This document shows, piece after piece, positions 1-61,197 of a DNA stretch of 64,000 nucleotides. Both the position numbers and the translations under genes were made by a program. The first letter of the stretch is position 1, and every line of letters begins with the position of its first letter. Under the pieces are notes generated by a model. That model was not told the DNA's origin, did not search any database, and was given only the letters and a program-made list of their open reading frames with translations. The stretch lies in contig JALOQC010000017.1 in NCBI GenBank assembly GCA_025453555.1, positions 3,868-67,867 on the forward strand, read 5' to 3'. This DNA comes from Myxococcota bacterium. GTDB taxonomy: Bacteria > Myxococcota_A > Polyangia > Polyangiales > Houyiibacteriaceae.

Positions 1-2
1 CG

Positions 3-2858
3 GTGTTTCGACTGCCGTCGCAAGGCAGCGCGGCGGGCAGCACCGACCGCACGGTGACGGCGTCTTCCGTCGCGTCGATCGTCGCGGAAGCGGAGGACGG
101 CTCACCCCGACATCGGCGTTGGACCACGACCACCGAAACAGGCGAAGCGAGCCGTGAGTGGGAGCGCCTCTCGGATGGTCGTTCGGTCTCCCGGACGATC
201 AGCGCGATGGGTCGACGAACGGTCACGATCTACGACCTCCTCGATCGCCCCATCTGGAGCGCGGTCGTCGACGCGGCCGGTCAGCCGCTCTTCCACCCCG
301 TCACGTACACCTACGACGACGGCCTCGGTCGGCCGACACGCATCACCCAGGCTCCGACCGACGCGTCTCAGCGGCCCATCCTCACCGATGTCGAACAGAC
401 CCGCACCGTCGAGCTCGACTACCCGGGCGCGGGCCGACTCGGCCACGTCACCCAACCGCACGGCGACTCCGCGTTCTCCCCCGCCGACCCGAACGAGCGG
501 ATGCGCACGAGCTTCGGCTACGACCCGATCGGACGAGTGACGAGCTCGTCGTCGAACGGCGCCGCCACCGGCTTCGGATACGACGTGATGGGCCAGCTCA
601 CGCGCGTCACGCCTCCGGGCCGCGGCGATCACACGATGACCTACTCGGCGGACGAGCAGCTCGCGAGCTACGCACCCCCCGCCTACACCGATCCGGATGC
701 TGCGCCCGGCGCGCCGCGCGTCGCGACGCCGAGCACGTGGGCTCCCGGACCCGACCGCGACGAGGTCGCGAGCTATACCGTCACGCGCGGCGCGGAGACG
801 CGCTCGAGCGGACAGACGTACGACCCGACGACGGGCCGTCTCGCCTCGATGACGATCGGCGGTGTGCCCGGCAGCGTCACGTTCTCCTACGCGCCCCGCG
901 CGGGCGAGAGCGTCAGCGACACCGGCCAGCTTCGACACGCCTCGATGCCGCAGACGCGCGCGGGCTCGTCGGCGGTCGCGACCACGCTCTACTACGACGG
1001 CCCGCTCGGCACCGAGACGCGGACCGAGGGCCTGCCGAACGCGCCGTGGAAGGTGGGTTACCACCACGACGCGGCGGACGAGCTTCGGCTCGCGCACCTC
1101 ACGGTGGCAGTCGGCAGTACGAGCACGAACGTGCCCACGATCGCGTACGACTACGACGCGGACGGACTGATCACCTCGCTCGGCTACGGCTACGACGGGG
1201 ACGGGATCGCGCTCCGTGAAGGCAGCTACGACGAGAACGTGGCGCCGACCCCCACGCTCGCGCGAAGCATGGCGGTCGTCCCGGATCCGCAGACGGGCGT
1301 GCTCGCGCAGACGTGTGTCGGTGGCACGGTGGCGCTCGGCTCGGGCACCTGCTCGGGTCGTGTGAGCACGACGATCACGCCGAACGACTTCGGCGAGCCG
1401 GCGAGCGTGGAGACGACATGGAACGGAAGCTCCGTCTCGGGCAGCCTCTCGTTCCACTACGAGCACGACCGCGCGGGGCGCATCGTCGCCCGCACCGAGG
1501 TGGAGGGCGCGAGCTCGACCAGGCTCGAGTACGGGTATGACGCGCAGGGACGTCTCGAGAACGTGTGGCGCCGCACCTCGCCGACCACGCGCGAGCGCCT
1601 CTACCACTACCAGTACGACGCGAACGGCAACCGCATCGGCTGGGCGCTTCCCTCCGGAACTTGCAACCCGACCGTGAGCACGTGCACGCGCGTCGACGAG
1701 CAGGACCGCCTGCTCAGCGCGGGCGGGGTGAGCTACTGGTACGACCTCCAAGGTCAGCTCGCGACCCGCACCGAGGGCACGCGCGCGGAGACCTTCACGT
1801 ACGACATGGCGGGCAACCTCCGCACCTTCGCGGTGCGCGAAGGCGGAACGCAAACGCGTCACGTTCAATACGCGATCGACGCCTTCGGTCGCCGCGTCGG
1901 GCGCTACGTCGGCACGAGCGGAGCCACGAGCCCGGACCGCTTCTGGGTCTACCAGGACGGCCTCAACCCGGTCGCGCAGCTCAACGCGATGGGCCAGCTC
2001 GAGCTCCTCTTCCTCTACGGCACCCAGGCCCACGTCCCCGACCTCGTGGTCGAGGTGCGCGGTGCGAGCACCACGGACGACGTCGTCTACCGCGTAGTCA
2101 CCGATCAAGTCGGTAGCGTCCGTCGCCTCGTGAACGTCGAGACGGGCGCCGTCGCCGCGTCCTTCGACTACTCCCCCTTCGGTGTCCTCGAGCGCGAAGA
2201 CGGTGCGCTCGCGGCCCGATTCCCCTTCCGCTTCGCGGGCGGGCTGTGGGATGGAGACACGGGCTTGGTGCGGTTCGGTGCGCGGGACTACGATCCGCGG
2301 GTTGGAAGGTGGACGGCGAAGGACCCGATTCTGTGGGGTGGCGGGCAGGGGAATCTGTATGAGTACTGTGGTTCCGAGCCGGTCAACTGTGCTGATCTGA
2401 ACGGTCTCACCCCTTGGTCACTGGACGAGCTCGCGGCTCAAGGTCTGCAGATGCTGCGAGAGCACAAGCCTATGCTCCAGAACGTAGTCGGCAACGTGGC
2501 GCTGTTAGGTGGGCTGGCAACTGACTGGATCATGGGACGCGAGCCTCGAATCGAAACCGCGGAGGTTGGGGGAATCGTAGCGGTCGAGTACTACAACCAC
2601 CCCTGGATGTCTGACGGTTACTCACGCACGCTTGGAGATACGATCTGCTACGCATCGGACGGGAGATCCCCGTTCTTCGGGCGACATCGACAGCATGAGC
2701 ACGCGCACGTCGAGCAGTACGAGGCGCTTGGCATGTCGTACATCCCCTTGCACTTGCTTGCGCAAGTGGCCTCGTACGACCAGACAGGCTCCTACAACCG
2801 AGCGAACGCACTCGAGATTGGGCCATCATCAACACCCTCGAAACCATGGCCATGGTGA
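3..2858 (+). CDS. RHS/YD-repeat polymorphic toxin, C-terminal part (5' end outside the window) with a variable C-terminal toxin tip
   Basis: The ORF is open to the window edge. It has many YD-type repeats (YTYDDGLGRPT, FGYDPIGRV, YGYDAQGRLE, YQYDANGNRI, FTYDMAGNLR). The RHS core-end motif GARDYDPRVGRWTAKDPILWGGGQGNLYEYCGSEPVNCADLNGL lies at about 2270-2405. It is followed by a tail of about 150 aa containing HEHAH (HExxH). Confidence 0.9.
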   Translation: MFRLPSQGSAAGSTDRTVTASSVASIVAEAEDGSPRHRRWTTTTETGEASREWERLSDGRSVSRTISAMGRRTVTIYDLLDRPIWSAVVDAAGQPLFHPVTYTYDDGLGRPTRITQAPTDASQRPILTDVEQTRTVELDYPGAGRLGHVTQPHGDSAFSPADPNERMRTSFGYDPIGRVTSSSSNGAATGFGYDVMGQLTRVTPPGRGDHTMTYSADEQLASYAPPAYTDPDAAPGAPRVATPSTWAPGPDRDEVASYTVTRGAETRSSGQTYDPTTGRLASMTIGGVPGSVTFSYAPRAGESVSDTGQLRHASMPQTRAGSSAVATTLYYDGPLGTETRTEGLPNAPWKVGYHHDAADELRLAHLTVAVGSTSTNVPTIAYDYDADGLITSLGYGYDGDGIALREGSYDENVAPTPTLARSMAVVPDPQTGVLAQTCVGGTVALGSGTCSGRVSTTITPNDFGEPASVETTWNGSSVSGSLSFHYEHDRAGRIVARTEVEGASSTRLEYGYDAQGRLENVWRRTSPTTRERLYHYQYDANGNRIGWALPSGTCNPTVSTCTRVDEQDRLLSAGGVSYWYDLQGQLATRTEGTRAETFTYDMAGNLRTFAVREGGTQTRHVQYAIDAFGRRVGRYVGTSGATSPDRFWVYQDGLNPVAQLNAMGQLELLFLYGTQAHVPDLVVEVRGASTTDDVVYRVVTDQVGSVRRLVNVETGAVAASFDYSPFGVLEREDGALAARFPFRFAGGLWDGDTGLVRFGARDYDPRVGRWTAKDPILWGGGQGNLYEYCGSEPVNCADLNGLTPWSLDELAAQGLQMLREHKPMLQNVVGNVALLGGLATDWIMGREPRIETAEVGGIVAVEYYNHPWMSDGYSRTLGDTICYASDGRSPFFGRHRQHEHAHVEQYEALGMSYIPLHLLAQVASYDQTGSYNRANALEIGPSSTPSKPWPW

Positions 2859-3223
2859 GAAGCGCTTTTGTCCTGAGATGGACGGTGTCAGCATCCCTGA
2901 TAATGTCTTGTGTGTACCCAGGTACGCGAGTAGACGAGGTGTGCGTCGTAGCTGCCGTCGACGACGTTGACTGTGTGTCGAAGTCACTCGATGATATCTG
3001 TCAATGGTCACCCAACGAGGCTGGCTTCCTGGTGTGTCATCCCGAAGGAGAAGACCATCTCGTCATCGCACTGCACGAGGCCGACCTCATCGTGGGTGGG
3101 GCGGTATTCGACGGTAGGTTCGATCGGTGGAGCATTCGGCGACCTCTCACTGTTGATCGAATCGGCAAGGCTGCCGAGGTATGCGCTGTTGGCAGGTTCG
3201 TGGCATCCAGTTGCCCATTCTAG
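2846..3223 (+). CDS. Candidate immunity protein for the RHS toxin tip (hypothetical, 125 aa)
   Basis: It lies immediately downstream on the same strand, and its ATG overlaps the RHS stop by 13 nt. It falls inside the same lower-GC block (about 2400-3230) as the toxin tip. No recognisable motifs. A competing 73-codon ORF exists on the minus strand (3008-3229). Confidence 0.35.
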   Translation: MAMVRSAFVLRWTVSASLIMSCVYPGTRVDEVCVVAAVDDVDCVSKSLDDICQWSPNEAGFLVCHPEGEDHLVIALHEADLIVGGAVFDGRFDRWSIRRPLTVDRIGKAAEVCAVGRFVASSCPF

Positions 3224-3979
3224 TCCCATGTCTCCGAAACAGCTTTCGGAAGGATCCTGCCGTGACGGTGGAACGTTCCACCGTTTTTGCCCAGACCCTG
3301 AAGTGAACGGGGAATCCGCGGGGAACGGGAGAACGTGCCACAGGAACGTGTCAAGAGAACGCACCACCGTATTTGCCCAGACCCAGGAATCATCGGGGAA
3401 TCCGACGGCGCGATGAGCCGGTATGACCACCGCTACCACTGCCGGTGGGGGAACGTGCCACCGTTTCTTCTCAGAACCTGAAATCAACGGGGAGTCCGGC
3501 GGTGCGATGAGCCCGCCCGCCCGCCTCCGGAGCGTGGAACGTGGGGGGAACGTGCCACCGTTTTGCCTGGCGAACGTGGCGAACGTGCGGGGAACGTGCC
3601 ACCGGGGGAACGGGCCACCGCCGCGTGCCAGGGGAACGTGCCAGGGGAACGTGCCACGAACGTGCCAGGGGAACGTGCCACCGTTCTTGCCCAGACCCAG
3701 GAATCATCGGGGAATCCGATGGCGCGATGCGCCGGTATGACCACCACCGTGCCACCGGGGGAACGTGCCACCGTTTTTTTCTCAGAACCTGAAATCAACG
3801 GGGAGTCCGGCGGTGCGATGAGCCGGCCCGCCCGCCCCCGGAACGTGGAACGTGCCGCCGGTTTTGCCCAGAACCCGCGGTGTCAGGAGAATATGCTAGC
3901 CGCGGTGTCAGGAGAATATGCCACCATTTTTACCCAGACCTAGGAATCAACGGGGAATCCGGCGGCGCGATGAACCGGC

Positions 3980-4148
3980 ATGACGACCGCCAAGTCCGCA
4001 CGTCGCTCGCGTCCTCTCCGGTGTGAAGATCCAGAACAGTTGTTCTTCGTGACGACGCGAACCATCGAAGAGGTCTTCTGGCTCGACCCGCTGCTCTGTT
4101 CACGGCTCGCGCCCATGAATCGGGAAGCGCGGCGGGTGGTGGATGCGC
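3980..4148 (+). pseudogene. Truncated 5' copy (about 56 codons) of the RAYT-like gene
   Basis: MTTAKSARRSRPLRCEDPEQLFFVTTRTIEEVFWLDPLLCSRLAPMNREARRVVDA is near-identical to the N-terminus of the ORF at 4676. It is preceded by the same leader module and breaks off into another leader module at about 4150. Confidence 0.85.
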
Positions 4149-4258
4149 GCAACGGGGGGAACGTGCCACCGTTTTTGCCCGCGCAACGGGGGGAACGTGC
4201 CACCGTTTTTGCCCAGACGCCGGAATCAACGGGGAATCCGACGACGCGATGAGCGGGC

Positions 4259-4366
4259 ATGCCTACCGCCAGACCCACGCGCCGCTCGCGTCCCCTCCGG
4301 TGTGAAGATCCCGAACAGTTGTTCTTCGTGACGACGCGAACCATCGAAGAAGTCTTCTGGCTCCAC
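4259..4366 (+). pseudogene. Truncated 5' copy (about 35 codons) of the RAYT-like gene
   Basis: MPTARPTRRSRPLRCEDPEQLFFVTTRTIEEVFWLHP matches the 4676 ORF N-terminus. Homology stops at about 4366. There a different short-repeat segment begins: TGACGTCGTAGC-like 12-mers at 4384, 4408, 4441 and 4464, then GCTGCTGGCCGCCCA x2 at 4491-4521. Confidence 0.85.
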
Positions 4367-4675
4367 CCTGTTAACGGCCGAAATGACGTCGTAGCCGGAT
4401 CCAACATTGACGTCGTAGCGATCCGAGCCGATGGCCGCGCTGACGTCGTACGCGGGACCACGCTGAGGTCGTAGCCGTACGACCCACGCGGCTGCTGGCC
4501 GCCCAGCTGCTGGCCGCCCAGGGGAACGTGCCACCGTTTTTGCCCAGACTGAGGAATCAACGGGGAATCCGACGGTGCGAGGAGCGGGCATGCCCACCGT
4601 GCCAGGGGGGAACGTGCCACCGTTTTTGCCCAGACGCCGGAATCAACGGGGAAACGACACGCGCGATGAGCCGGC

Positions 4676-5667
4676 ATGCCCACCGCCAAGCCCGCGCGCC
4701 GGTCCCGTCCCCTCCGATGTGAAGATCCCGAACACCTGTTCTTCGTGACGACGCGAACTCTCGAAGAAGTCTTCTGGCTCCACCCACTGCTCTGTTCGCG
4801 GCTCGCGCCGGTGAACCGTGAAGCGCGGCGGGTGGTGGATGCGAAGCGGTCGAGGCTCCGCGCGAAGCTGGCGCGCCTCGTCGCGAGCGCGAACCGCCGA
4901 CGGCCCGAGAACCAACCGAAGTTGACGGTGGAGGAAGCGGAGAAGCTCGCGGAGGACTGCGTGAGCTCGGCGCTCGCGCGGGCGCAGAAGCATTGTGCGG
5001 AGAGCGGGCTGCCTCCGGTGGAGGTGTTCGCGGTGGCTACTTCCTCGCCCGCATCGCGCAGACCCTGAACCTGCTGCTCGGTCGCGTGGGTCCCGTGTTC
5101 CCGAGACGCTATGACGCTCAGCCGATCCTCGACGAAGAAGCCGCAGCGGGTCGCATCAAGTACGTGCTCGAGAACCCCAAGAAGGCGGGGCTCGTGAAGT
5201 GCTTCACGGAGTGGCCGGGCTTCGTCGCGGTCGCGGGCCTGCACGACGGCGAGGAGGTCGAGACGCGACACTTCGATCGGTCTGCTTGGCAGCTCGCGAA
5301 GCGCCCGAACGAACGCGAGCGCTACTGGCGTCGCGGCCGCCTGCGTCTGAGCCGACTTCCGGGAATGGAGTCGCTCTCGTGTTCGGCGTACCTCGCGACG
5401 TTGAAGAGCTGGTGCGACTCGCGGCACGCGGATCGCTGCCTGGGCGTCGAAGGCGTGCTCGACGCGGACGTGAACCAGCGACCCAGGAAGCCGAAGCGGT
5501 CGCGTCGTCCCTACGCGTTCGGACGCCCCGAAAAGGTCGACGCGTATCGCGAGGCGAGTCGGCTCCGCTACGCCGCGTACGACGCGGCGCGTGCGCTCAC
5601 GAAGCTCGGCGAGCGCGTCGAGTGGCCGGAGGGCATGTACGCGCCAGGGGGGGCCGTCGCGGCGTAA
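4676..5667 (+). pseudogene. RAYT / IS200-like (Y1 HUH transposase-like) gene, frameshifted and apparently lacking the HUH segment
   Basis: Two overlapping frames: 4676-5068 and 4993-5667. The second carries GRVGPVFPRRYDAQPILDEEAAAGRIKYVLENPKKAGLV, which resembles the conserved G-x-hF-x-RY...Y-hh-x-NP-x-KAGLV block of COG1943/PF01797-type proteins. The first ends ...VEVFAVA, where homologs continue with xxSNHxHLL. That motif is absent in every frame. Confidence 0.7.
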
Positions 5668-5806
5668 TGCGCGAAGCGGTGGGCTGACTTCGAGCGCGCG
5701 CGGGACGTCGCGGCTGCGCCTGCGCTTGCTGCGCTTGGGGGCGAGTCGGTCGACGCGCTCGAGGGTGTCGCGCATCCGGAAGTCCACCGGTGCGACGGGA
5801 AGTCCG

Positions 5807-5950
5807 GCCGCCGCGAGGCAAGATTGGTGGCACGTTACCCCCGGTGGCACGGCGCCATCGCGCGTGCACACTCGGGGTACCACTGGTCCCAGCAGATGCC
5901 GACGCCGCCGCGAGGCAAGATTGGTGGCACGTTACCCCCGGTGGCACGGC
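5807..5950 (+). repeat. Two 47-nt direct repeats carrying the inverted core motif, enclosing an aguB-derived 56-nt segment
   Basis: GCCGCCGCGAGGCAAGATTGGTGGCACGTTACCCCCGGTGGCACGGC occurs at 5807-5853 and 5904-5950. GGTGGCACGTT is the reverse complement of the left-array core AACGTGCCACC. The intervening 5852-5907 is identical to 7971-8026. Confidence 0.9.
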
Positions 5951-5989
5951 ACGTTACCCCTGGGCCCGGAAGCGCCTCCGCCGTCTTGC

Positions 5990-6649
5990 TCATCGCTCGG
6001 TTGGCTTCTTGGTGGCCCGCTGGGCTGCCTTCTTGGTGGCCCGCTTCGGTCCCTTCTGGCTCGCCGTCGCCGGGGCCTTCTCGCGCGGCGTCCGCTTCGC
6101 GACCAGCGGCACGCGCTCGCCCTGCCGCTCATACACGTACGTCCGCCAGACGCGCTCTTCTTTCCCGTACTCGGTCGGCTCGAAGCTCTCGACGACCTGG
6201 CACGGCGGCTCGCCCTCGCGCTGCATCCAGGTGCAATGACCGCTGTCCTTCGCCTCGCGGACGAGCACGAGGCCGCGGGCCTTCGCGAGCGCCGCACCGA
6301 CCCTTCCTGCGTACACCTCGGGAGCGCCCCGCCGCTCACGCTCGAGCGCGAGCTGCTCCAGCCGCCGGCCGAGGGAGTCCGCCTGATAGAACGAGACCCC
6401 GAGCTCGTCGACTTCGATGCACTTGCCGTCCGAGTCGCAGAACCAGTTGACGAAGTCGAACCCCCCCACGACGGTGTAGGTCTTTCCGCCTCGCGTCACC
6501 TTCCTCGGCGACGTCTCGAAGGTCACCGTCCGACCGTCCCCGTGGGGCTCGTCTTCCGCAATGAAAGCCAGGGCTCGCACCGAGAGGTCCCCGGCGAGCG
6601 CCGGGGGGACTTTCGTCCATTCGCTCCTTCGACGCCGGCTGGGCACCAC
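5990..6649 (-). CDS. Hypothetical protein with a Lys/Ala-rich (histone H1-like) C-terminal tail
   Basis: 219-codon ORF with a protein-like composition (GGKTYTVVGGFDFVNWFCDSDGKCIEVDELGVSFYQADSLGRR...) and the tail KAPATASQKGPKRATKKAAQRATKKPTER. No family recognised and the start is uncertain. Confidence 0.5.
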   Translation of the reverse strand: MVPSRRRRSEWTKVPPALAGDLSVRALAFIAEDEPHGDGRTVTFETSPRKVTRGGKTYTVVGGFDFVNWFCDSDGKCIEVDELGVSFYQADSLGRRLEQLALERERRGAPEVYAGRVGAALAKARGLVLVREAKDSGHCTWMQREGEPPCQVVESFEPTEYGKEERVWRTYVYERQGERVPLVAKRTPREKAPATASQKGPKRATKKAAQRATKKPTER

Positions 6650-6957
6650 TCAGTCGTCCGCCGCGCAGGCGCGATGAGTTGCAGGGGTTGCCGCCAGATC
6701 CCGTACTGCGATGAGAGGCTGACCCACTCTGAGTCAGCCTCTCAGTTCGTTGAGATATCGTCAAGAGGTGTGGATCGCGTAGCCGGATCAGGCGGCGTTC
6801 TTCCTCGACTCTCTGCGCTTCATGGATTCGATTTTTCGTACTGAAGGAGCCTTCGGCTCACGCGTGGTCGTCGAGTCGCTCACGACCGCGTCGAGATCGT
6901 CGCGTTCGGGGAAGCCCCGTCGACGCAGCGCTTCGTCCTCACCACGGGCAGCAGCGT

Positions 6958-7062
6958 GTGCCCAGCGCGGAACCGGGAGAACGCGCTGCCCAGCGCGGAA
7001 CGGCGGGGAGAACGTGCCAGGGAAACGTCCCACGGCGGCCCGACAACCAACCGAAACTGACG
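6958..7062 (+). repeat. Remnant of the repeat element plus an internal fragment of the RAYT-like gene
   Basis: A ~28-nt unit TGCCCAGCGCGGAACnGGnGAGAACGnG occurs twice, with the core GAGAACGTGCCAGGGAAACGTCCCAC. Then CGGCCCGACAACCAACCGAAACTGACG matches CGGCCCGAGAACCAACCGAAGTTGACG at about 4905-4931 inside the RAYT-like ORF (RRPENQPKLT versus RRPDNQPKLT). Confidence 0.7.
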
Positions 7063-7101
7063 AAGCTCGAAAGGTTTTGCTTCGGTTCGCCCGATTCCGC
7101 T

Positions 7102-7521
7102 TCAATTCCCCTCGATCACCCTCGGGGCGCCTTCGTCGCGGAGCCACTTCGCGGCTCGCTCGACCACGTCGCCGAGCAGGATCACGTCAGCGTCTTCGAC
7201 CGTGGCGCCGCAGCCGAGCGCCTTCTTCATCTTGGTCGCGAGCTCGTCGAGGCGGGTCTCGGGGAGGCCTCGCACGCGGGTGGCCGTCTTTCCGCCGCGG
7301 CCCTTTCGCTCGCGGGAGAGCACGATCTTGGCGCTGCCCCAGGTGGGCGCTCGGGGTGCGGGGGCCGACGCGGGCGAAGCTTCTCGGTCGGCCGGGTCAG
7401 CGGCCGACGAGGCTTCGACCTTCGGCGCCGGCGGCAGTTCGTCCTTCTTCACCGCGAGCGCCGCGAAGGGGTTCTGCTTGAGGGGGGCCGCGTCGGGCTC
7501 GATGCGCTTCTTCGAGGCCAT
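7102..7521 (-). CDS. yciH: Translation initiation factor SUI1/eIF1-like protein (YciH family)
   Basis: 139 aa. The C-terminal domain KIVLSRERKGRGGKTATRVRGLPETRLDELATKMKKALGCGATVEDADVILLGDVVERAAKWLRDEG has the typical SUI1 fold signature. Confidence 0.85.
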   Translation of the reverse strand: MASKKRIEPDAAPLKQNPFAALAVKKDELPPAPKVEASSAADPADREASPASAPAPRAPTWGSAKIVLSRERKGRGGKTATRVRGLPETRLDELATKMKKALGCGATVEDADVILLGDVVERAAKWLRDEGAPRVIEGN

Positions 7522-7605
7522 GGTTCTTCCGATTCGTGCGGACGAATCACTGCAACTGAATCGCGCGATTCATCGTGAGATCTAGCCGGCAGTCAAGCCG
7601 CACGA

Positions 7606-8469
7606 TCAAACCGGGTTCTTGCCGTCCGCCGTGAGCAATACTTGGTACAGCTCCGGGCGGCGGTCGCGGAAGAAACCCCAGTTCGCGCGTTCGATCGCGA
7701 GCGCGTCGAGGTCGAAGACCGCGTGGGCGAAGCCTTCGTCGGTGCGGCCGAGCTCGGACACTTTGTCGCCGCGCGGGTCGGCCACGAAGGAGGAGCCGTA
7801 GAAGCTCATCGCGGCCTCGGTGCCGACGCGGTTCGCGGCCGCCACCGGCATCGCGTTGCTCACCGCGTGCCCGATCATCGCGCGCTGCCAGGGATCTTTG
7901 GTGTCCATCTCGGGCGCGTGGGGCTCGGTGCCGATCGCGGTCGGGTAGAGCAGGAGCTCCGCACCCTGCAGCGCCATCGCGCGTGCACACTCGGGGTACC
8001 ACTGGTCCCAGCAGATGCCGACGCCGATCGCGCCGAAGCGCGTCTTCCACACGCGAAAGCCGGTGTCGCCGGGGCGGAAGTAGAACTTCTCTTCGTAGCC
8101 GGGGCCGTCCGGGATGTGGCTCTTGCGGTAGAGGCCGAGCAGCGCGCCGTCCGCGTCGACCATCGCGAGGCTGTTGTAGTAGGCGTGGCCCGCGCGCTCG
8201 AAGAAGCTCACCGGGATCACGACCCCGAGCTCCTTCGCGAGCGCCTGGATCGTGGCGATCGTCGGGTGCCCTTCGAGCGGATGCGCGGTCGCGAAGAAGC
8301 GTTCTTCTTCGGTCTGACAGAAGTAGGGGCCCTCGAAGAGCTCGGACGGCAGGATCACGTTCGCGCCCGCGGCGGCGGCTTCGCGGACGAGCTCCACGAC
8401 GCGCGCGACGTTGGTCTCGCGATCGGCTCCGAGGGCGCATTGCAGGACGGCGACGTGCACGGAACGCAT
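7606..8469 (-). CDS. aguB: N-carbamoylputrescine amidase-like carbon-nitrogen hydrolase
   Basis: VAVLQCALG...NVILPSELFEGPYFCQ...GLYRKSHIPDGPGYEEKFYFRPGDTGFRVW...GVGICWDQWYPECAR...LLYPTAIGTEP gives the nitrilase-superfamily E-K-C triad context typical of AguB. The start was taken at MRSVHVAV (8469), because the longer ORF to 8580 adds an Arg-rich non-protein-like extension. Confidence 0.85.
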   Translation of the reverse strand: MRSVHVAVLQCALGADRETNVARVVELVREAAAAGANVILPSELFEGPYFCQTEEERFFATAHPLEGHPTIATIQALAKELGVVIPVSFFERAGHAYYNSLAMVDADGALLGLYRKSHIPDGPGYEEKFYFRPGDTGFRVWKTRFGAIGVGICWDQWYPECARAMALQGAELLLYPTAIGTEPHAPEMDTKDPWQRAMIGHAVSNAMPVAAANRVGTEAAMSFYGSSFVADPRGDKVSELGRTDEGFAHAVFDLDALAIERANWGFFRDRRPELYQVLLTADGKNPV

Positions 8470-8750
8470 GGCACGGGGTTTCGCACGTGTGAGCCGCGGG
8501 GCCAAGCGGCGCGAGGCGCGGGTCCGATGGGGTCGAACACGGCGACTGCGCGTCGGGATCGCGCGATTCGACCGGGTCACTCGTGCGAGGCGACGCTCGC
8601 GCCGTCCTACTCCGCGATGGCGCGCGTCGGAAACGTTTCACTCGCACGGTCGACGCCTATGCCCCGTAGGAGGCTCCGCTACGTCACCTTCGCGTGAGCT
8701 TCTCGACACGGGGCTCGGGCGATCCGTCGAACGCTGGTAGGTTTCGCACC

Positions 8751-9299
8751 ATGACGCGTTGGGTCGCAGGGGTCGTTTTGCTGGTGGCGTGTGGGGGTGG
8801 TGGAAGCGGTGGTGGCGCGAGCACCGTGCCCGCGCGATGGCACTCCGACTTTCAGCATCTGAGCGCAGGTTGGCTCGGGTGTCCGGCGGAAGAGGTCGTG
8901 GTCGAAGAAGCGCAGCGCGCGAGCTGGGCATCCAGCTGGCGAGCGACGTGTGGCGACCTCGTGATGATCTGCAGCAGCGGGTATCAGAACAGCACCCATT
9001 GCGCGCCCCTCCACGCCTCCACCCCGGAGCCCACCCGCACCGAGAGCCCGCTCGTCATCCGCGATCTGCCGCCCGAGGTCGCCGAGTGCATCGAGCGTCC
9101 GGTCGCGGTCGAGGTCCTCTTCGGCGGTGACGGGCGCCTCTCCGAGCTGCGTCCGTGGCCCGGCGAGACCCCAGAGCAGCGCCGTTGTGTGGAGCGCGTG
9201 CTGGTCGAGATCGACGCCCCGACTGGCACCGGCGGCCCGGTGCTCGTGCGCTTCGAGCCGCGCGATCCGTGGCAAGGCACCTCGGGCGGCGAGCGCTGA
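8751..9299 (+). CDS. Hypothetical lipoprotein
   Basis: MTRWVAGVVLLVACGGGGSGGG is a lipobox signal peptide (LVAC). The start was chosen at the internal Met of ORF 8694-9299. Confidence 0.6.
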   Translation: MTRWVAGVVLLVACGGGGSGGGASTVPARWHSDFQHLSAGWLGCPAEEVVVEEAQRASWASSWRATCGDLVMICSSGYQNSTHCAPLHASTPEPTRTESPLVIRDLPPEVAECIERPVAVEVLFGGDGRLSELRPWPGETPEQRRCVERVLVEIDAPTGTGGPVLVRFEPRDPWQGTSGGER

Positions 9300-9368
9300 G
9301 CCCTCGCACGCTCCCGTCGCCGTGCGTCGCGACGATCGGGTGCTTCGCGAGCGTCGAAGATCGAGCGT

Positions 9369-9459
9369 GACGATCGAGCGCGACGATCGAGCGCTACGAT
9401 CGAGCGCGACGATCGAGCGCGACGATCGAGCACGACGATCGAGCACGACGATCGAGCGC
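9369..9459. repeat. 13-nt intergenic tandem repeat, 7 copies (GACGATCGAGCGC)
   Basis: Read directly: GACGATCGAGCGC x7 with three single-base variants (TAC..., ...CAC x2). It lies between the lipoprotein gene and the YhfC-like gene. Confidence 0.95.
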
Positions 9460-9555
9460 CGCCGCTCGAAGGCGTGTGAATGACGAGTCCGACTCGCCCT
9501 CGCGCTTGGTCACGAAGGCTGACCTCGTCGCACGATCCGCGGCATCCTCGCGCCC

Positions 9556-10443
9556 ATGAGCGACGAGACCACCGTCCTCGCGACGTCGATCGCGCAGATC
9601 GCGCTGATGACGCTGCTGCCGATCGGCGCCGCGATCGTCGTCGCGCGCCGCGGTCCCCCGCGCTGGATGCTCGCGATCGGCGCCGCGACCTTCCTCGGAT
9701 CGCAGCTCGTGCACCTACCGCTCAACCACGGGCTCACCGTGCTCGGCGCGGAGGCCGGTCTGAACGAGGCGCTCCAGCCTGCGTCGGCGCTGATCGTCAA
9801 CGCGCTCGTGCTCGGCTTCACGGCCGCGTTCTGCGAAGAAGGCGCGCGCTTCTTCGTGTTTCGCGCGGTCTTCGCGCGGCGACCGGAGTGGCGCACGCGC
9901 GCGGCGGCGCTGACCCACGGCGTCGGTCACGGCGGCGTCGAAGCGATCGCGCTCGCCGCGTTGGTGGCCGTCACGCTGATCGGCATGCTCTCGATGCGCG
10001 GGGTCGACGTCGCGCAGCTCCCGATCCCCCCCGACCAACGCGCGCTCGCGGCAAGGCAGATCGAGTCCTTCTGGGCGATGCCGGCGTGGATGCCCTTCAT
10101 GGCGGTGCTCGAGCGCGCGCTGACGATGATCCTGCAGATCGCGCTCTCGATCGCGGTCGCGTACGGAGTCGCCACGCGGCGCTTCCGCCCGGTGTGGCTC
10201 GCGTTCCTCACGCATTGGGCGGTCGACGCCTTCGCGGTGCTGGGTATCGGCGGCATCCCTCTGATCGTGGGCGATCCGGAGACGCAGCTCGGCGTGCTGA
10301 TCGTCGAAGGTGCGCTCGTCGTGGTCGCGGCGGCGTCGCTCGAGGTGGTGCGTCGCTCGCGTGGGTGGCGTTGGGAGCCTGACGAGCCGACGTCGGCCCC
10401 GATGCCGGGCGCGGCCGCCGACGAGGGTTCGCCACGAAGCTGA
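9556..10443 (+). CDS. YhfC-family intramembrane metalloprotease-like membrane protein
   Basis: Multi-pass hydrophobic protein with FCEEGARFFVF (EExxR) and HGVGHGGVEA motifs characteristic of the YhfC family. Confidence 0.7.
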   Translation: MSDETTVLATSIAQIALMTLLPIGAAIVVARRGPPRWMLAIGAATFLGSQLVHLPLNHGLTVLGAEAGLNEALQPASALIVNALVLGFTAAFCEEGARFFVFRAVFARRPEWRTRAAALTHGVGHGGVEAIALAALVAVTLIGMLSMRGVDVAQLPIPPDQRALAARQIESFWAMPAWMPFMAVLERALTMILQIALSIAVAYGVATRRFRPVWLAFLTHWAVDAFAVLGIGGIPLIVGDPETQLGVLIVEGALVVVAAASLEVVRRSRGWRWEPDEPTSAPMPGAAADEGSPRS

Positions 10444-10477
10444 CGCGCATCTCGGCGAACGAGCGCCCTCCTCGCGG

Positions 10478-10649
10478 CCGCGTGGGAAGCCTCGGCGCTC
10501 CTGCGTGGGAACCCTGCTGCGTGGGAAGCCTCGCCGCGGCAGGTCGGAAAGCCTTCGCGATTCAGGTCGGAAAGCTCCGCGATTCAGCGCAGGAAGCCTC
10601 CGTGATTCGGCGCAGGAAGCCTCCGTGATTCAGCGCAGGAAGCCGGTGT
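10478..10649. repeat. Degenerate 22-23-nt tandem array derived from the 3' terminus (last codons plus stop) of the cysQ-like gene
   Basis: GATTCAGCGCAGGAAGCCTCCGT occurs at 10581 and GATTCGGCGCAGGAAGCCTCCGT at 10604. GATTCAGCGCAGGAAGCCGGTGT at 10627 contains the real stop (TCA at 10630-10632) and the codons for ...FLR. More diverged units (CAGGTCGGAAAGC..., GCGTGGGAAGCCTCG...) extend back to about 10478. Confidence 0.85.
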
Positions 10650-11466
10650 CGCGCGCGACTTCCTTCACCACCGCGAGCACGGCCTCGTAGCTCGCGGCGT
10701 TGCACGCGAGGATGCCTCCGTCGGTCCGCAGGTCGGCTCCGCCGTACGCGTAGCGCTCGCCGTCGGCGCGTACGAACACGCCGCCCGCTGCGCGCAGGAT
10801 CGCCTCCGGGGCGCAGGCATCCCAATGCGACGACTTGTCGGAGAGGTGGATGTACAGATCGGCTTCTCGCTCGGCGATCAAACCGACTTTCAGCCCGACG
10901 CTGCCGCTCGGTCGTTCGCTGGTCAGCCCGAGGGTCTTGGCGATGCGGTCGATCTCGGCGGGGCGGTGCGAGCGCGAGACCACGAGGCGAAGGCGGCTCG
11001 GATCGACCTCGTCGGAGACACGCAGCGCGCGGCGCTCGCCGTCGTGCTCGAGGAACGCGCCGACGCCTTCCGCGCCCGCGTAGAGCTTACCGGTCGCGGG
11101 CTGGAAGACCACGCCGAGGACGGCGTGGCGATCGATCGCGAGGCCGATCATCACCGCGAACTCGCCGTTCTTCGCGATGAACTCCTTGGTGCCGTCGAGG
11201 GGGTCGACGAACCACACGCGACCTTTCGTTGCGAGGCTCTTGTCCGCGCTCTCCTCGGCCACGATCGCGTCTCCGGGGAACTCACGCTCGAGCGCCGCGA
11301 CGATGTGCGCGTTGGCGAGGCGGTCCGCGTCGGTCACCGGATCGCGGGGCGACTTGTAGGCGACGGCGAAGTCCTTCGCGTAGATCTCGGAGAGGATCGC
11401 GCCGGCTTCGCGGGCGATGCGGATGACGGTGTCGAGCTCGGCGGTCATGCGCGCGGACCATGACAC
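10630..11466 (-). CDS. cysQ: 3'(2'),5'-bisphosphate nucleotidase / inositol monophosphatase family protein
   Basis: Motifs AIVAEES, WFVDPLDGTKEF and SSHWDACAPEAILRAAGG are typical of the CysQ/IMPase family. An alternative start lies at 11448 (MTAELD). Confidence 0.8.
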   Translation of the reverse strand: MSWSARMTAELDTVIRIAREAGAILSEIYAKDFAVAYKSPRDPVTDADRLANAHIVAALEREFPGDAIVAEESADKSLATKGRVWFVDPLDGTKEFIAKNGEFAVMIGLAIDRHAVLGVVFQPATGKLYAGAEGVGAFLEHDGERRALRVSDEVDPSRLRLVVSRSHRPAEIDRIAKTLGLTSERPSGSVGLKVGLIAEREADLYIHLSDKSSHWDACAPEAILRAAGGVFVRADGERYAYGGADLRTDGGILACNAASYEAVLAVVKEVARDTGFLR

Positions 11467-11561
11467 GCGACCGAGCCCCGCGCCTCACCGCGAACGTGTC
11501 GCGGCGAAGCTCGGGGCTCGAAAGGTCGAGGCCGCGGGAATGCGCGTCGCGTTCGGAACGC

Positions 11562-12296
11562 TCAGGGCGCGAAGGTCCGCACGACCACGCCGTCGCCCGA
11601 GTCGTCGCAGGTGCTCCCGGGGGACAACGCGAGGCAGTCGCAGGTCGGCGGGCCGTCGCAGGTGTTCAGATCCGAGTTGCACGCGAAGCTCTCGAAGCCG
11701 GGCTCGGCACCTCCCACGAGGACGTCGCAGTACTCGGTGTCCTGACGGCAGCGCAGGCCTTCGTCGCCGCAGTCGAAGCAGGGCGCGGGGAAGACCTCGA
11801 GCCGCGTCCACTCGCCGCCCTCGCAGCGGAAGAGGTTGCAGAAGGAGCACTCGTCGGTGCACGGACCGCCGCACGACTGCCCTTCGGTCGCGCACGCCTC
11901 GCCCTCGGTGATGGAGCTCGGACACGCGCCCGCGTCGGACACGAAGCCGGAGTCGCGCAGGCCGGCGTCGGAGCGATCGCACGTCCGATCGACGCGACGG
12001 CAGAGGTCGTCCGGGAGATCGTCGCGGTCGAGCATGCGGTCGGAGCAGATCGCGGCGCCTTCGAGGTCGAGGCGGAAGGGGAGCTCGGTCGGACAACGGA
12101 AGCCGCCCTCGATCACGATCGCCTGCGCGTAGGCGCAGACGCGAGCGCCCGCGACCTCGTCGTAGTGACCGTCCGGGCCGCAGAGGCTCGGAGTCGAGGA
12201 CTCGGAGCAGCCGGGCAGGGCGACGACGGACAGGGCTACCGGGGCGACGGTCGTGAAGAGAAGCCTGACGAGCGGGCGAAGCATCGGGCGAAGCAT
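11562..12296 (-). CDS. Cysteine-rich hypothetical lipoprotein
   Basis: The internal start gives MLRPMLRPLVRLLFTTVAPVALSVVALPGCSES (lipobox LPGC). The mature part is Cys-rich. Confidence 0.6.
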   Translation of the reverse strand: MLRPMLRPLVRLLFTTVAPVALSVVALPGCSESSTPSLCGPDGHYDEVAGARVCAYAQAIVIEGGFRCPTELPFRLDLEGAAICSDRMLDRDDLPDDLCRRVDRTCDRSDAGLRDSGFVSDAGACPSSITEGEACATEGQSCGGPCTDECSFCNLFRCEGGEWTRLEVFPAPCFDCGDEGLRCRQDTEYCDVLVGGAEPGFESFACNSDLNTCDGPPTCDCLALSPGSTCDDSGDGVVVRTFAP

Positions 12297-12424
12297 GGTT
12301 TCCAACCTCCGCTCCGAGGATTCTCCGTCGCTCGTCGTCGCGCCACGATCGGGCGCGCCAAAGCGTGGCAACGGTTTGCCACACGGTGCGCCGCCCGAGC
12401 CCACCTGCGGAGTACCCTCGCGCG

Positions 12425-13267
12425 ATGAAGGCCGCGCCCAAGGTCTCGCCCATCGACGTTCGGCTGCAGGTCGTCGCGCTCGCGCTCGAGCCCGGGCTCG
12501 CGCTCGCGCGCCTCGCGTCGTTGCCGCTCGACGACCTCCAGCGCCTCGTCGCCGCGGGCTACTTCCGCGACGCGCGCGCCCGCGGCTGGTCGTTCCGCGC
12601 GATCGCCAAACGCTTCGACAAGAGCCTTCGCACCGTCACGAACCTCTCGAACCTCTCGAACGAGCACGGGGTCCCGCTGGAGTCGAGCCAGCGGCTCGGG
12701 TGGCGTCGGCAGCTCGTGCACGCGGTGGCCGCGCGACCCGAGGGGCTCACCGAACGCGCGCTCTTCGCCACGGTGCCGGAGGCGAGCTCGGAGGCGCTGG
12801 CGGAGGAGCTCGCGGAGCTGATCGAAGAGGGCATCCTCGAACGCGAGGCGCGCGAAGACGACGCGCGGGTTGGCGAAGCGCGGGTTGGCGAAGCGCGGGT
12901 TGGTGAAGCGCGGGGTGGCGACGAGTCGCGCGTGCGTGTGGTCGCGCGGCACTTCGACCTCGTGCAGGACGAGCTCGGTCCGCGCCTCGAGTCGTTCCGA
13001 CACTTCCTGCGCGCGGTCGCGGCGGTCGCGTACCGACGTTTCTTCGTGCGCGACGACGAAGCGGAAGCGTTCGCGCGGGTGCTCAGCTTCTCCTCGAGCC
13101 GCGCGGAGCTCGTGGCGTTGCGCGAGCGCAGCTACGCGGTGCTGCGTGACGCGGCGTTCGCGGCCGACGCCGCGGCCGACGCCGACGCGGACGACACGCA
13201 CCAAGCGGTCGCGGTGTTCGCGGTGGCCGAGGAGCCGACCGACCCTGCGTGGCGCCCGCGCCGCTGA
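12425..13267 (+). CDS. Hypothetical protein with a possible HTH segment and an internal ARVGE x3 repeat
   Basis: ORF 12365-13267, start taken at MKAAPK. GWSFRAIAKRFDKSLRTVTNL looks like a helix-turn-helix. A 15-nt in-frame repeat (ARVGEARVGEARVGEARGG) lies at about 12863-12919. Confidence 0.5.
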   Translation: MKAAPKVSPIDVRLQVVALALEPGLALARLASLPLDDLQRLVAAGYFRDARARGWSFRAIAKRFDKSLRTVTNLSNLSNEHGVPLESSQRLGWRRQLVHAVAARPEGLTERALFATVPEASSEALAEELAELIEEGILEREAREDDARVGEARVGEARVGEARGGDESRVRVVARHFDLVQDELGPRLESFRHFLRAVAAVAYRRFFVRDDEAEAFARVLSFSSSRAELVALRERSYAVLRDAAFAADAAADADADDTHQAVAVFAVAEEPTDPAWRPRR

Positions 13268-13569
13268 CGACCCCACAGCAGCGGTCGACTTCGCACGCCG
13301 AGCACCGTCACGCCATGGGTGCCGTCGATGCGCTCGCATCCGGCGCCAAGCGTGTCACGAGCGACGACACGTGGGCGTGTGGACTTCGCGACGCACCGTC
13401 CAGGGCGGCGTGTCGTTCCGTGACCTCCCTGTGAGCTTCAGCGGCCGAACCGTTGCGCGTGTCGCGCGTGATGGGCGATTCGACGCCCAGTTGGAACGAG
13501 CCGCTCGGAGCCGATTCGATGGGCCCGGACGGACGTCGATGCAGGGCGCGTGGCGACGATCGACGCGAC

Positions 13570-13648
13570 GGGTGACTCGACGGGTGACTCGACGGGTGAC
13601 TCGACGGGTGACTCGACGGGTGACTCGACGGGTGACTCGACGGGTGAC
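13570..13648. repeat. 12-nt intergenic tandem repeat, 6.5 copies (GGGTGACTCGAC)
   Basis: Read directly: units start at 13570, 13582, 13594, 13606, 13618 and 13630, with a partial unit at 13642. Confidence 0.95.
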
Positions 13649-13904
13649 GTACCGTCGTCGGTTGCTCACAAGTGTGATTGAGCACCACCGACGCGCCACT
13701 TGAGGTCATCGAACACCATACTAAGTTGGGGACGTCCGCTGCAGAAACGACTTCTGGCGGAACGCCGAGCCTCCGTCGCGGCGGAGCCGACGGACGTCGG
13801 GATGCGCGTCGCGAAGCTTGCACCCCGAGGTCGCTCGCTCCTCGTCCTGCCGTGGAAGACCGGAGAGGTGGCGGAGCACGACCGCGACATCGGAAGGATA
13901 CGTG

Positions 13905-59925: not shown

Positions 59926-61197
59926 CTACGTCACGATCACGCGGCGCACCGGCGCGGCGTGGACCTCGTCGAGCTCCACCTCCGCGAGGTCGATGCGATC
60001 GCTGAGCGTCGTGAACGCGAGGAAGGCGGCGAGGTTGCGGACGTTCGCCGCCCACGGCGGCACGTAGCGCGGCGGGCTCACGGTGCCGTCGTCGAACGAC
60101 GCTTCGAGGTCGAGCGCGTCGACCAGCGTGAGCCGCCCCGCGAACAAACGCGGGATCAGATCCGGGCGATGATCGGCGATCGCCTTGCGCAAGAAGGTGT
60201 GCACCGCGAAGAGCCCGCGGAGGTACACGACGTCCTTCGTGAACACGTGACGTCCGCGCGGATCGCCGCCGCGGAAGATGCGCATGGTCGTGCGCACCGC
60301 CTCGCCCTCCGGCTCGCCGATCGAGAGCAACCACTCGAAGACCTCGACGAAGTCCGCGCCTTCTTCCGCGTGGTGGATCGCGCGCACGCGGTACGCGAGG
60401 CGGCGCAGGCGCGCGAGATCGATGCTGCCCGTCACGAGCTCCGCGAAGGTCGCGAGCCCCTCTTGGGTCGCGGTGGTGCGCGGCGCGCCGAGGCTCAGCG
60501 CGGTCACGATCGGCTGCGCGCGCCCGTTGCGGCTCGTCAGGCTGTGCACGCCGATCTCGTGCTCGGAGAGCTGCGCGACGTCGTTCTCGGTGAAGACGCT
60601 GCTCGTGTGCAGCCGAACCCGATCCGCGCTCGCGGCCGCCTTCGCGGCGAGGTCGTCGTCGAGCACGATCTCCAGCGGATCGGTGAAGAAGCCGTTCCAG
60701 CGCGCGCGCAATCGCATCGCGACTTCCGTCGCTCCGAGCTGCACGTCCTCGTGATCGTCGTGCGTGGCCTCGAAGAGCGCGGCCGTGACCGCGAGCAGCC
60801 GATCGGCCGCTTCGAGGTGCGAGAGGCTCGAGCCCGTGATGTGCGCCTGCGGGCCACCGAAGAGCTCGCGGCTGATCTGGTGCGCCTTCGCGGTCCCGGC
60901 GGCCCCGATGAGCCCGCAGATCGTGCGGTAGCTGTCTGCGGTGTCCGCGAGGAACTGCCCCACCGGATCGCCGAGATCGACCTCGTCGAGGATCGCGTCG
61001 AGCTCGTCGGTCACCGACGCGGGCAGCGGCCGCGGCTTCGGCGCGATCGGCAGCTCACGACGCCCCTGCCGCCACGCCTCCAGGAACCGCTCCCCGATCG
61101 ACCCCGGCCAGCTCAGCGCCGAGAGCACCTTCACGTCGCGCGCGGCCTCCACGAGCCGCCGACTCTGATCGCGCAGTCGATCCACGCGTCCGATCAT
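59926..61197 (-). CDS. DUF1704 / 'QEGLA motif' flavohemoglobin expression-modulating family protein
   Basis: SEHEIGVHSLTSRNG...TTATQEGLATFAE is the family-defining HExxH-like and QEGLA motif pair. 423 aa. Confidence 0.8.
   Translation of the reverse strand: MIGRVDRLRDQSRRLVEAARDVKVLSALSWPGSIGERFLEAWRQGRRELPIAPKPRPLPASVTDELDAILDEVDLGDPVGQFLADTADSYRTICGLIGAAGTAKAHQISRELFGGPQAHITGSSLSHLEAADRLLAVTAALFEATHDDHEDVQLGATEVAMRLRARWNGFFTDPLEIVLDDDLAAKAAASADRVRLHTSSVFTENDVAQLSEHEIGVHSLTSRNGRAQPIVTALSLGAPRTTATQEGLATFAELVTGSIDLARLRRLAYRVRAIHHAEEGADFVEVFEWLLSIGEPEGEAVRTTMRIFRGGDPRGRHVFTKDVVYLRGLFAVHTFLRKAIADHRPDLIPRLFAGRLTLVDALDLEASFDDGTVSPPRYVPPWAANVRNLAAFLAFTTLSDRIDLAEVELDEVHAAPVRRVIVT

Follow-up and report, generated by a model that had tools for sequence, protein, structure and literature searches.

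A 56-nt piece of aguB, the gene for N-carbamoylputrescine amidase, occurs a second time in the Myxococcota bacterium contig JALOQC010000017.1, with an identical 47-nt repeat on either side, at the right end of a mobile element with a gene resembling those of REP-associated tyrosine transposases (RAYTs; REP, repetitive extragenic palindrome). The analysis covers a 64-kb (64,000-nt) stretch of this contig, referred to as the window; R1, X, and R2 denote the first 47-nt repeat, the 56-nt copy, and the second 47-nt repeat. The arrangement is probably a recent, lineage-specific scar, in which a short tandem duplication of the right end carries 50-56 nt of templated filler from aguB, 2.1 kb away. 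The segments that compose it, and the gene from which X was copied, are as follows.

5807..5853, plus strand: R1, the first 47-nt repeat, 83-85% complementary to the left-end copies at 4150-4630 (pairs I1-I8)
5852..5907, plus strand: X, the aguB copy, an exact match to 7971-8026
5904..5950, plus strand: R2, the identical second repeat (family D7, 100%)
5948..5963, plus strand: older partial repeat of the terminal inverted repeat (TIR) core (GGCACGTTACCCCTGG), directly 3′ of R2 (family D10, 94%)
7606..8469, minus strand: aguB, N-carbamoylputrescine amidase, intact (TIGR03381, 448.9 bits, cutoff 410)
7971..8026, plus strand: source segment inside the minus-strand aguB, encoding GVGICWDQWYPECARAMA, which pairs with 5H8I in the alignment

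Anatomy of the Copy and Its Source

X (5852-5907) equals 7971-8026 at 56 of 56 positions, with both segments on the plus strand and 2,119 nt apart, and the 56-mer (GCGCCATCGC…GACGCCG) has exactly two occurrences in the window. Chance predicts no such match, with 0 matches in 100 shuffles. R1 (5807-5853) and R2 (5904-5950) are 100% identical (47/47), and in a self-BLAST of the whole 64 kb no pair of repeats other than the 56-nt and 47-nt ones reaches 28 nt with 93% identity or more. Between the element region (3200-7100) and the remaining window, the 56-mer is the single match. The repeat itself, as seen in R1, is made up of 10 nt of element-internal sequence (GCCGCCGCGA), the right TIR (GGCAAGATTGGTGGCACGTTACCCCC), and an 11-nt stutter of the core (GGTGGCACGGC).

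Neighboring segments overlap at both joins. The GC at 5852-5853 is common to the end of R1 and the start of X (2 nt of microhomology), and the GCCG at 5904-5907 is common to the end of X and the start of R2 (4 nt), so the unambiguous insert is 5854-5903 (50 nt). For random junctions drawn from the window, the probability of at least 4 nt of microhomology is 0.036 and that of a total of at least 6 nt over two junctions is 0.03.

The aguB open reading frame (ORF) matches Pfam CN_hydrolase at 9e-53 and the Medicago N-carbamoylputrescine amidohydrolase 5H8I at E=1e-110. The copied stretch aligns to IGVAICWDQWFPEAARAMA of 5H8I (…IGVaICWDQWfPEaARAMA…) and includes the motif ICWDQW, the Cys of which is the nucleophile of the nitrilase superfamily. 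Because the aguB stretch is a native, conserved catalytic coding motif, copying ran from aguB to the intergenic site and not the reverse. An earlier note on this DNA, made by reading the letters, had described an exact 56-nt copy of the catalytic-Cys region of aguB, in the orientation of the original, with 47-nt repeats on both sides that belong to the right end of a RAYT-like element, and its account of the copy, the repeats, and their orientation is correct.

The Element and Its Unstable Ends

The remaining features of the element, together with the gene that lies next to its right end, are listed below.

4676..5667, plus strand: TIRYT/RAYT-like Y1 (HUH) transposase gene, a pseudogene in the window, with 67 nt including NHLHLVV missing at 5036
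4597..4630, plus strand: left TIR of the full-length element copy (CCGTGCCAGGGGGGAACGTGCCACCGTTTTTGCC)
3267..4630, plus strand: pile-up of at least 12 left-end copies, each with a leader of ~70 nt
5990..6526, minus strand: conserved 178-aa hypothetical gene that converges on R2-X-R1 and anchors the orthologous loci; no Pfam/NCBIfam match
6958..7062, plus strand: element remnant on the far side of the 178-aa gene (families D5, D12)

The transposase gene of the window is split over two frames. A metagenome contig from the Joint Genome Institute (JGI), 3300037462, Ga0392395_0004448 (L001; L-numbers denote related loci), is 100% identical to window 1-13868 except for 67 extra nt at window 5036 (L001 8834-8899), and with these in place the ORF runs to 352 aa and includes the HUH motif NHLHLVV. 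The gene in the window has thus become a pseudogene by deletion, frameshifted and deprived of the HUH motif. The 67-nt stretch is present in every other family copy examined, and the difference represents either population heterogeneity, with dead and live alleles, or an assembly difference.

This second assembly also bears on the reality of the R-X-R arrangement. A chimeric path via short repeats, formed in the library or during assembly, is conceivable at a repeat-rich locus where related contigs often break and where the sequence comes from metagenome assemblies. However, L001 holds the identical R-X-R although it differs from the window by the 67-nt indel 0.8 kb away, and the R|X and X|R junctions each need spanning reads. 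Repeats of 47 and 56 nt, being shorter than typical final k-mers or reads, should moreover create no false path by themselves. The misassembly that the earlier note had named as a ground for refutation is unlikely for these reasons, with the proviso that the two assemblies may share reads.

The intact 352-aa protein matches the NCBIfam model NF047646 “REP-associated tyrosine transposase” with E=6.6e-15 and 55.3 bits, below the cutoff of 80, and Pfam Y1_Tnp with E=0.19 and 12.3 bits (cutoff 23); a sequence search returned no PDB relative. H126, H128, and Y185 are invariant across an alignment of 22 family sequences. Homologues with 40-96% identity occur in Polyangiales, Sandaracinus, and Myxococcales metagenome-assembled genomes (MAGs) and in metagenomes, several sources label them RayT, and the family is multi-copy and diverged within MAGs.

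The right TIR has the reverse complement GCCGTGCCACCGGGGGTAACGTGCCACCAATCTTGCC. The TIR arms measure 26-32 nt and are 78-85% complementary (4150-4630 versus 5817-5848 and 5914-5945). Neither R nor the left end is significantly folded, with structures no better than those of shuffles (z=+0.4 to +1.6), and the GTAG-tagged hairpin architecture of REP sequences was not found in R or the left end. The TIR begins GGGGAACG or GGGGTAACG; relative to GGGGWSAS, a motif carried by many but not all published TIRs (PMC3733652), the G run and positions 5 and 8 fit, while positions 6 and 7 do not. RAYT-like genes flanked by TIRs with a G run, which also occur in dimers and clusters, are known as TIRtrons or TIRYTs (Di Nocera et al. 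2013, PMC3733652; PMC6006769), and TIRYT is subclass 2.1 of Quentin et al. 2018 (PMC6006769). Judged by its sequence, the element is of this TIRYT/“TIRtron” type of RAYT-like Y1/HUH element, and the 47-nt repeats are its right TIR. The RAYT-like identity and the right-end position of the repeats, both proposed in the earlier note, are thereby borne out by the TIR complementarity, the HUH motif and Tyr, and the NF047646 match, albeit below its cutoff.

The left end has been multiplied far beyond a single copy. The pile-up holds three 5′ fragments of the transposase gene (at 3980, 4259, and 4676), and new left ends within it repeatedly begin right after the ATG(C/A)CCACCG of the preceding copy. 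Stutter arrays of the TIR core (GAACGTGCCAGGG) with units of 13, 24, and 37 nt occupy 3580-3681, and a perfect 34-nt tandem duplication that contains the left TIR lies at 4146-4214 without foreign DNA; both show the same kind of slippage as the right end. The remnant at 6958-7062 consists of a stuttered left-end core (GGGGAGAACGTGCCAGGGAAACGTCCCACGG) fused directly to an internal fragment of the transposase gene, which resembles 4901-4927 and encodes RRPxNQPKLT, and provides a second junction of a core with distant sequence (7007-7062).

One segment of the pile-up, 4366-4510, contains four copies of TGACGTCGTAGCCG, starts GTTAACGGCCGAAATGACGTCGTAGCCGGATCC, and stands where the second gene fragment would have its body. 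Nothing else in the window matches it, and similar stretches occur at L015 1359-1392, between a right end and the next left end, and at L013 4341-4411. With these counterparts in two other loci, the segment, which had looked like a possible second foreign insert, is probably element-associated and not captured from the host.

Comparable irregularities occur across the family. The right end of L003 is in tandem, with 26 nt present twice, as is that of L013, with ~38 nt present twice and one mismatch, and left-end arrays are also found in L003, L006, and L013. A miniature of ~250 nt with a left and a right end and no gene lies directly 3′ of a full element in L005/L016 (1680-1930); the family therefore has non-autonomous derivatives as well, similar to miniature inverted-repeat transposable elements. 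The end duplications in the window, L003, and L013 all lack a foreign insert, R-X-R excepted. In the search for further captures, self-BLAST was applied to the window and to eleven related loci, the first of the set (L001-L010), the right ends of L013 and L015 were inspected visually, and the window was compared with L093 and L095 by BLAST; another ~80 loci of the metagenome scan were screened for the TIR core motif only, which ten of them carry. Within this limited sample of related loci, only element-derived repeats and no other host-gene capture were found. An exact search for the right-end core GGTGGCACGTTMCCCCCGGTGGCAC gave 0 matches in metagenome contigs and 0 in genome contigs, two collections from which the source organism is absent. 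The ends of this family are, to judge from these arrays and junctions, rearrangement hot spots.

Orthologous Loci and the Age of the Event

The 178-aa gene that converges on the right end served as the anchor for the comparison with related strains. As a query in genome contigs, the 178-aa protein returned only an unrelated match from Planctomycetia. Database records exist for exactly these AguB and 178-aa proteins, MCU0671626.1 and MCU0671624.1, both under “MAG: Myxococcota bacterium”. The 3′ end of the gene contains a 24-nt tandem repeat (5994-6057, 2.7 copies) and encodes a Lys/Ala-rich tail (…KRATKKAAQRATKKPTER).

In L093 (JGI 3300043773), which is 95.4% identical over the 178-aa gene, two solo right-end copies follow directly after this gene (560-830), and efflux genes come next; the locus contains neither an aguB fragment nor a transposase gene. 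Each right end is preceded by arrays of a 21-nt unit (TGCAGTCGAAGGGGAACGTGC), ~11 copies in total, and the point to which the arrays slip back varies by 1-2 nt (…GTGCC|TGCAG, …GTGC|TGCAG, and …GTG|CAG) around a TGC microhomology. Junctions that vary in this way are the mark of a slipping polymerase and not of a cut by a site-specific nuclease.

L095, a different contig from the same sample as L093, matches the window with 92.2% identity across aguB, SUI1, and the 178-aa gene. Its similarity to the window ends at 5964, and it has no right end and no X; between X and the aguB of L095 there are 3 mismatches in 56 positions. Degenerate core motifs occur at L095 6563-6856, followed by the start of an ORF, the first 52 residues of which look, by eye, like the N-terminal helix-turn-helix of IS30-family transposases. 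Downstream of the 178-aa gene (5927-5990 in the window), three strains that are 92-95% identical thus display three different structures.

The event dates itself by two further comparisons. X equals the resident aguB at 56 of 56 positions and R1 equals R2 at 47 of 47, whereas older end duplicates in the window array are only 65-91% identical, so R-X-R is a recent and lineage-specific arrangement. In the comparison with related strains that the earlier note had called for, X is absent from both orthologous loci. The note had also argued that perfect identity means that the copy is either recent or maintained. Recency is supported over maintenance, X being absent from L093 and L095 and matching the resident allele and not that of the relative.

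This age also bears on the possibility that the copy was kept for a function, in which read-through RNA from the plus strand, complementary to 56 nt of the aguB mRNA, would lower the level of N-carbamoylputrescine amidase and through it putrescine synthesis. The geometry suits an antisense role, given that X has the orientation of its source and aguB lies on the opposite strand, and no intrinsic terminator is predicted between the transposase stop at 5667 and X. On the other hand, a promoter and terminator scan gave no promoter-like site, no Rfam match was found at E<=1 in window 2500-9000, X is missing from both orthologous loci, the event is very young (X and R each 100% identical), and transcription of the convergent 178-aa gene would yield X in the sense direction. 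A functional antisense copy is accordingly very unlikely. Of the read-through scheme proposed in the earlier note, the geometry and the lack of a predicted terminator stand, while promoter, Rfam family, and conservation are all wanting. Its suggestion that other copies of the repeat might also flank host-gene fragments found no example in the related loci examined, a limited sample, and this result goes against the functional reading. An antisense role is logically possible and unsupported, the copy bearing no sign of regulating anything; even with such a role, the copy could still have originated from a template switch.

Origin of the Copy

The junctions can be read as successive steps of a template switch. 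The proposal is set out along the minus strand, which is the direction of stutter slippage in L093. A nascent strand would have copied R, detached 10 nt inside the TIR, and re-annealed via 4 nt (GCCG/CGGC) to nearby single-stranded aguB at 8026-8023. After copying ~50 nt of aguB to 7971, the strand would have detached again, re-annealed at the outer TIR edge via 2 nt (GC), and copied the 47 nt of R a second time. The setting may have been lagging-strand synthesis at a rightward-moving fork, where R and aguB would lie on the same exposed template within one Okazaki-fragment distance. The element ends would act as strong stall or break points, perhaps via binding or nicking by the transposase, and are proposed to be repeatedly duplicated and stuttered for this reason.

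We infer the succession of the switches, their lagging-strand setting, and a stall due to the transposase, and a polymerase-dependent origin is likewise suggested by the slippage-type stutters that recur at these ends. Repair synthesis primed by microhomology at a break would be an equivalent route, indistinguishable from template switching at a fork. In eukaryotes, template switches that span 2 kb and then jump back are well documented. The earlier note had offered a footprint of template switching as one of two variants of its alternative to function, and this variant gains support from the junction microhomology, the recurrent end duplications and stutters, the absence of X in the orthologs, and the match of X to the resident allele.

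Several observations weigh against the template switch. It is a single event whose mechanism is deduced from junction anatomy alone, and the R-X-R allele is known from assembled contigs alone. The 2-nt microhomology taken by itself is uninformative (P=0.23), and no bacterial precedent was found in the literature for such switching at the end of a Y1 element. Finally, the R1/X junction lies 1-2 nt from the outer limit of the complementarity between left and right ends (5852); random breakpoints do not predict a junction at this edge, which hints at a transposase nick.

That hint leads to the second variant of the earlier note, an off-target “peel-and-paste” event in which the Y1/HUH enzyme would have cut single-stranded DNA at the terminus of the right end and at fortuitous aguB sites and aberrantly rejoined the pieces. 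The placement of the R1/X junction within 1-2 nt of the outer edge of TIR complementarity agrees with such a cut, the same population has an intact enzyme gene (L001), and RAYT-type enzymes perform single-strand cleavage and strand transfer with somewhat flexible site choice (PMC8266576). The X/R2 junction, however, falls at an unremarkable site within the element, 10 nt inward from the TIR, the four breakpoints have no evident motif in common, and no other captures occur in the related loci examined. X can pair with the 3′ part of R1, though this places it only in the top 3.4% of random windows, and other sites in the window resemble a TIR better than the aguB site does. In the ortholog, stutter junctions shift by 1-2 nt, a variation better fitted by polymerase slippage than by site-specific cleavage. 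A transposase-made capture is thus unlikely, and less likely than the template switch. A pseudo-end, with the aguB segment recognized as an element end, is unsupported, given that the segment is not a top TIR-like site and the pairing with the 3′ part of R reaches only the top 3.4%.

Genomic Setting and Implications

The neighborhood of the element is ordinary chromosome, with genes for SUI1, YhfC, inositol monophosphatase, pyruvate kinase, MurB, and Tex, and the nearest named relatives are Sandaracinus and Polyangiales MAGs. Window 1-3223 contains an RHS/teneurin YD-shell toxin gene that ends near 2790. Over 2500-3500, which includes a 125-aa ORF (2846-3223), the G+C content (GC) falls from ~0.70 to ~0.57-0.59, and this low-GC stretch may be a candidate variable toxin tip with an immunity gene. 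The left-end array of the element begins directly after this region of the RHS toxin and the 125-aa ORF. Farther away, 59926-61197 on the minus strand encodes a 423-aa protein matched over its full length by Pfam MATCAP (microtubule-associated tyrosine carboxypeptidase; E=4.5e-101); the family takes its name from a eukaryotic enzyme and is found here in a myxobacterial MAG.

As a single event, the copy carries little weight; its interest lies in what seems to be a clean and datable bacterial templated insertion with microhomology at a duplication junction. It also serves as a pointer to the ends of RAYT-like (TIRYT) elements, a poorly understood class, as hot spots of replication slippage and rearrangement. 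To judge from the stutters and duplicated ends, errors of copying at ends that are nicked or bound by protein may help repeats of the REP and TIR types to multiply. If X were transcribed, it would constitute a ready-made antisense RNA against a gene of polyamine synthesis and would show how regulatory RNAs could originate by accident.

Comparison with Known Systems

The layout of repeat, insert, and repeat (47/50/47 nt) falls within the size range of CRISPR, and the ends might accordingly be regarded as CRISPR-like repeats at which a dedicated machinery acquires a spacer-like insert and duplicates the 47-nt repeat; integration with repeat duplication would yield exactly R-X-R. A template copy in the manner of diversity-generating retroelements (DGRs) would be a variant of the same idea. 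The similarity to CRISPR extends to a 47-nt repeat, an insert of ~50 nt, and the duplication of the repeat around the insert. Unlike in CRISPR, R-X-R has neither array nor leader, the repeat is an unstructured transposon TIR present only twice around a single insert, and the insert is self sequence that comes from a site 2 kb distant. Among 31 Pfam-scanned ORFs of the window (28 that were 120 aa or longer and passed a filter on codon GC, and three others), neither a cas nor a reverse-transcriptase domain was detected, no similar arrays or other end pairs with foreign inserts occur in the related loci examined, and the other end duplications have no insert. The 0/56 mismatches, none of them A-specific, are not DGR-like. 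Both a CRISPR array and a DGR were rejected on these grounds, and dedicated acquisition of either kind is the least likely of the origins considered.

A transposase-based form of acquisition fares hardly better. Little credence can be given to the view that TIRYT ends are active acquisition sites, at which the Y1 enzyme or a partner inserts host single-stranded DNA and duplicates the end, with read-through RNAs of the inserts acting as antisense, here against the catalytic core of aguB; nor does more attach to its description as a transposase-driven analogue of CRISPR spacer integration.

Relative to REPtrons, in which a RAYT (TnpA-REP) is accompanied by clusters of REP sequences or bacterial interspersed mosaic elements (BIMEs), the element is a distant relative by NF047646, and members of its family are labeled “REP element-mobilizing transposase RayT”. 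Inverted repeat copies bracket the gene and also occur in clusters in both systems. The protein nevertheless scores under the NCBIfam cutoff (55 versus 80 bits), and the repeats have neither GTAG-tagged hairpins nor significant structure.

TIRtrons/TIRYTs are a closer parallel, sharing with the element a RAYT-like Y1 HUH gene between TIRs of 26-36 nt that open with a G run, and TIR copies that occur as dimers and clusters close to the gene. The element departs from published TIRtrons/TIRYTs in matching GGGGWSAS only partly (GGGGAACG) and in the extreme amplification and stuttering of its ends, and from their descriptions (PMC3733652, PMC6006769) in that one pair of ends encloses a host-gene fragment.

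For the copy itself, the nearest counterparts are the templated insertions attributed to fork stalling and template switching or microhomology-mediated break-induced replication (FoSTeS-MMBIR), which are described mainly in eukaryotes and partly with polymerase theta (Pol-theta). R-X-R resembles them in presenting an exact copy of a nearby segment of the same chromosome at a duplication junction, in the orientation of the source, and with 2-4 nt of microhomology at both joins. It differs in its host, a myxobacterial MAG, and in being tied to the end of a mobile element that is a recurrent slippage site. In these terms, R-X-R adds an instance to an already known type of mutation, here at the end of an element from a class that has been little studied and whose ends are strikingly unstable.

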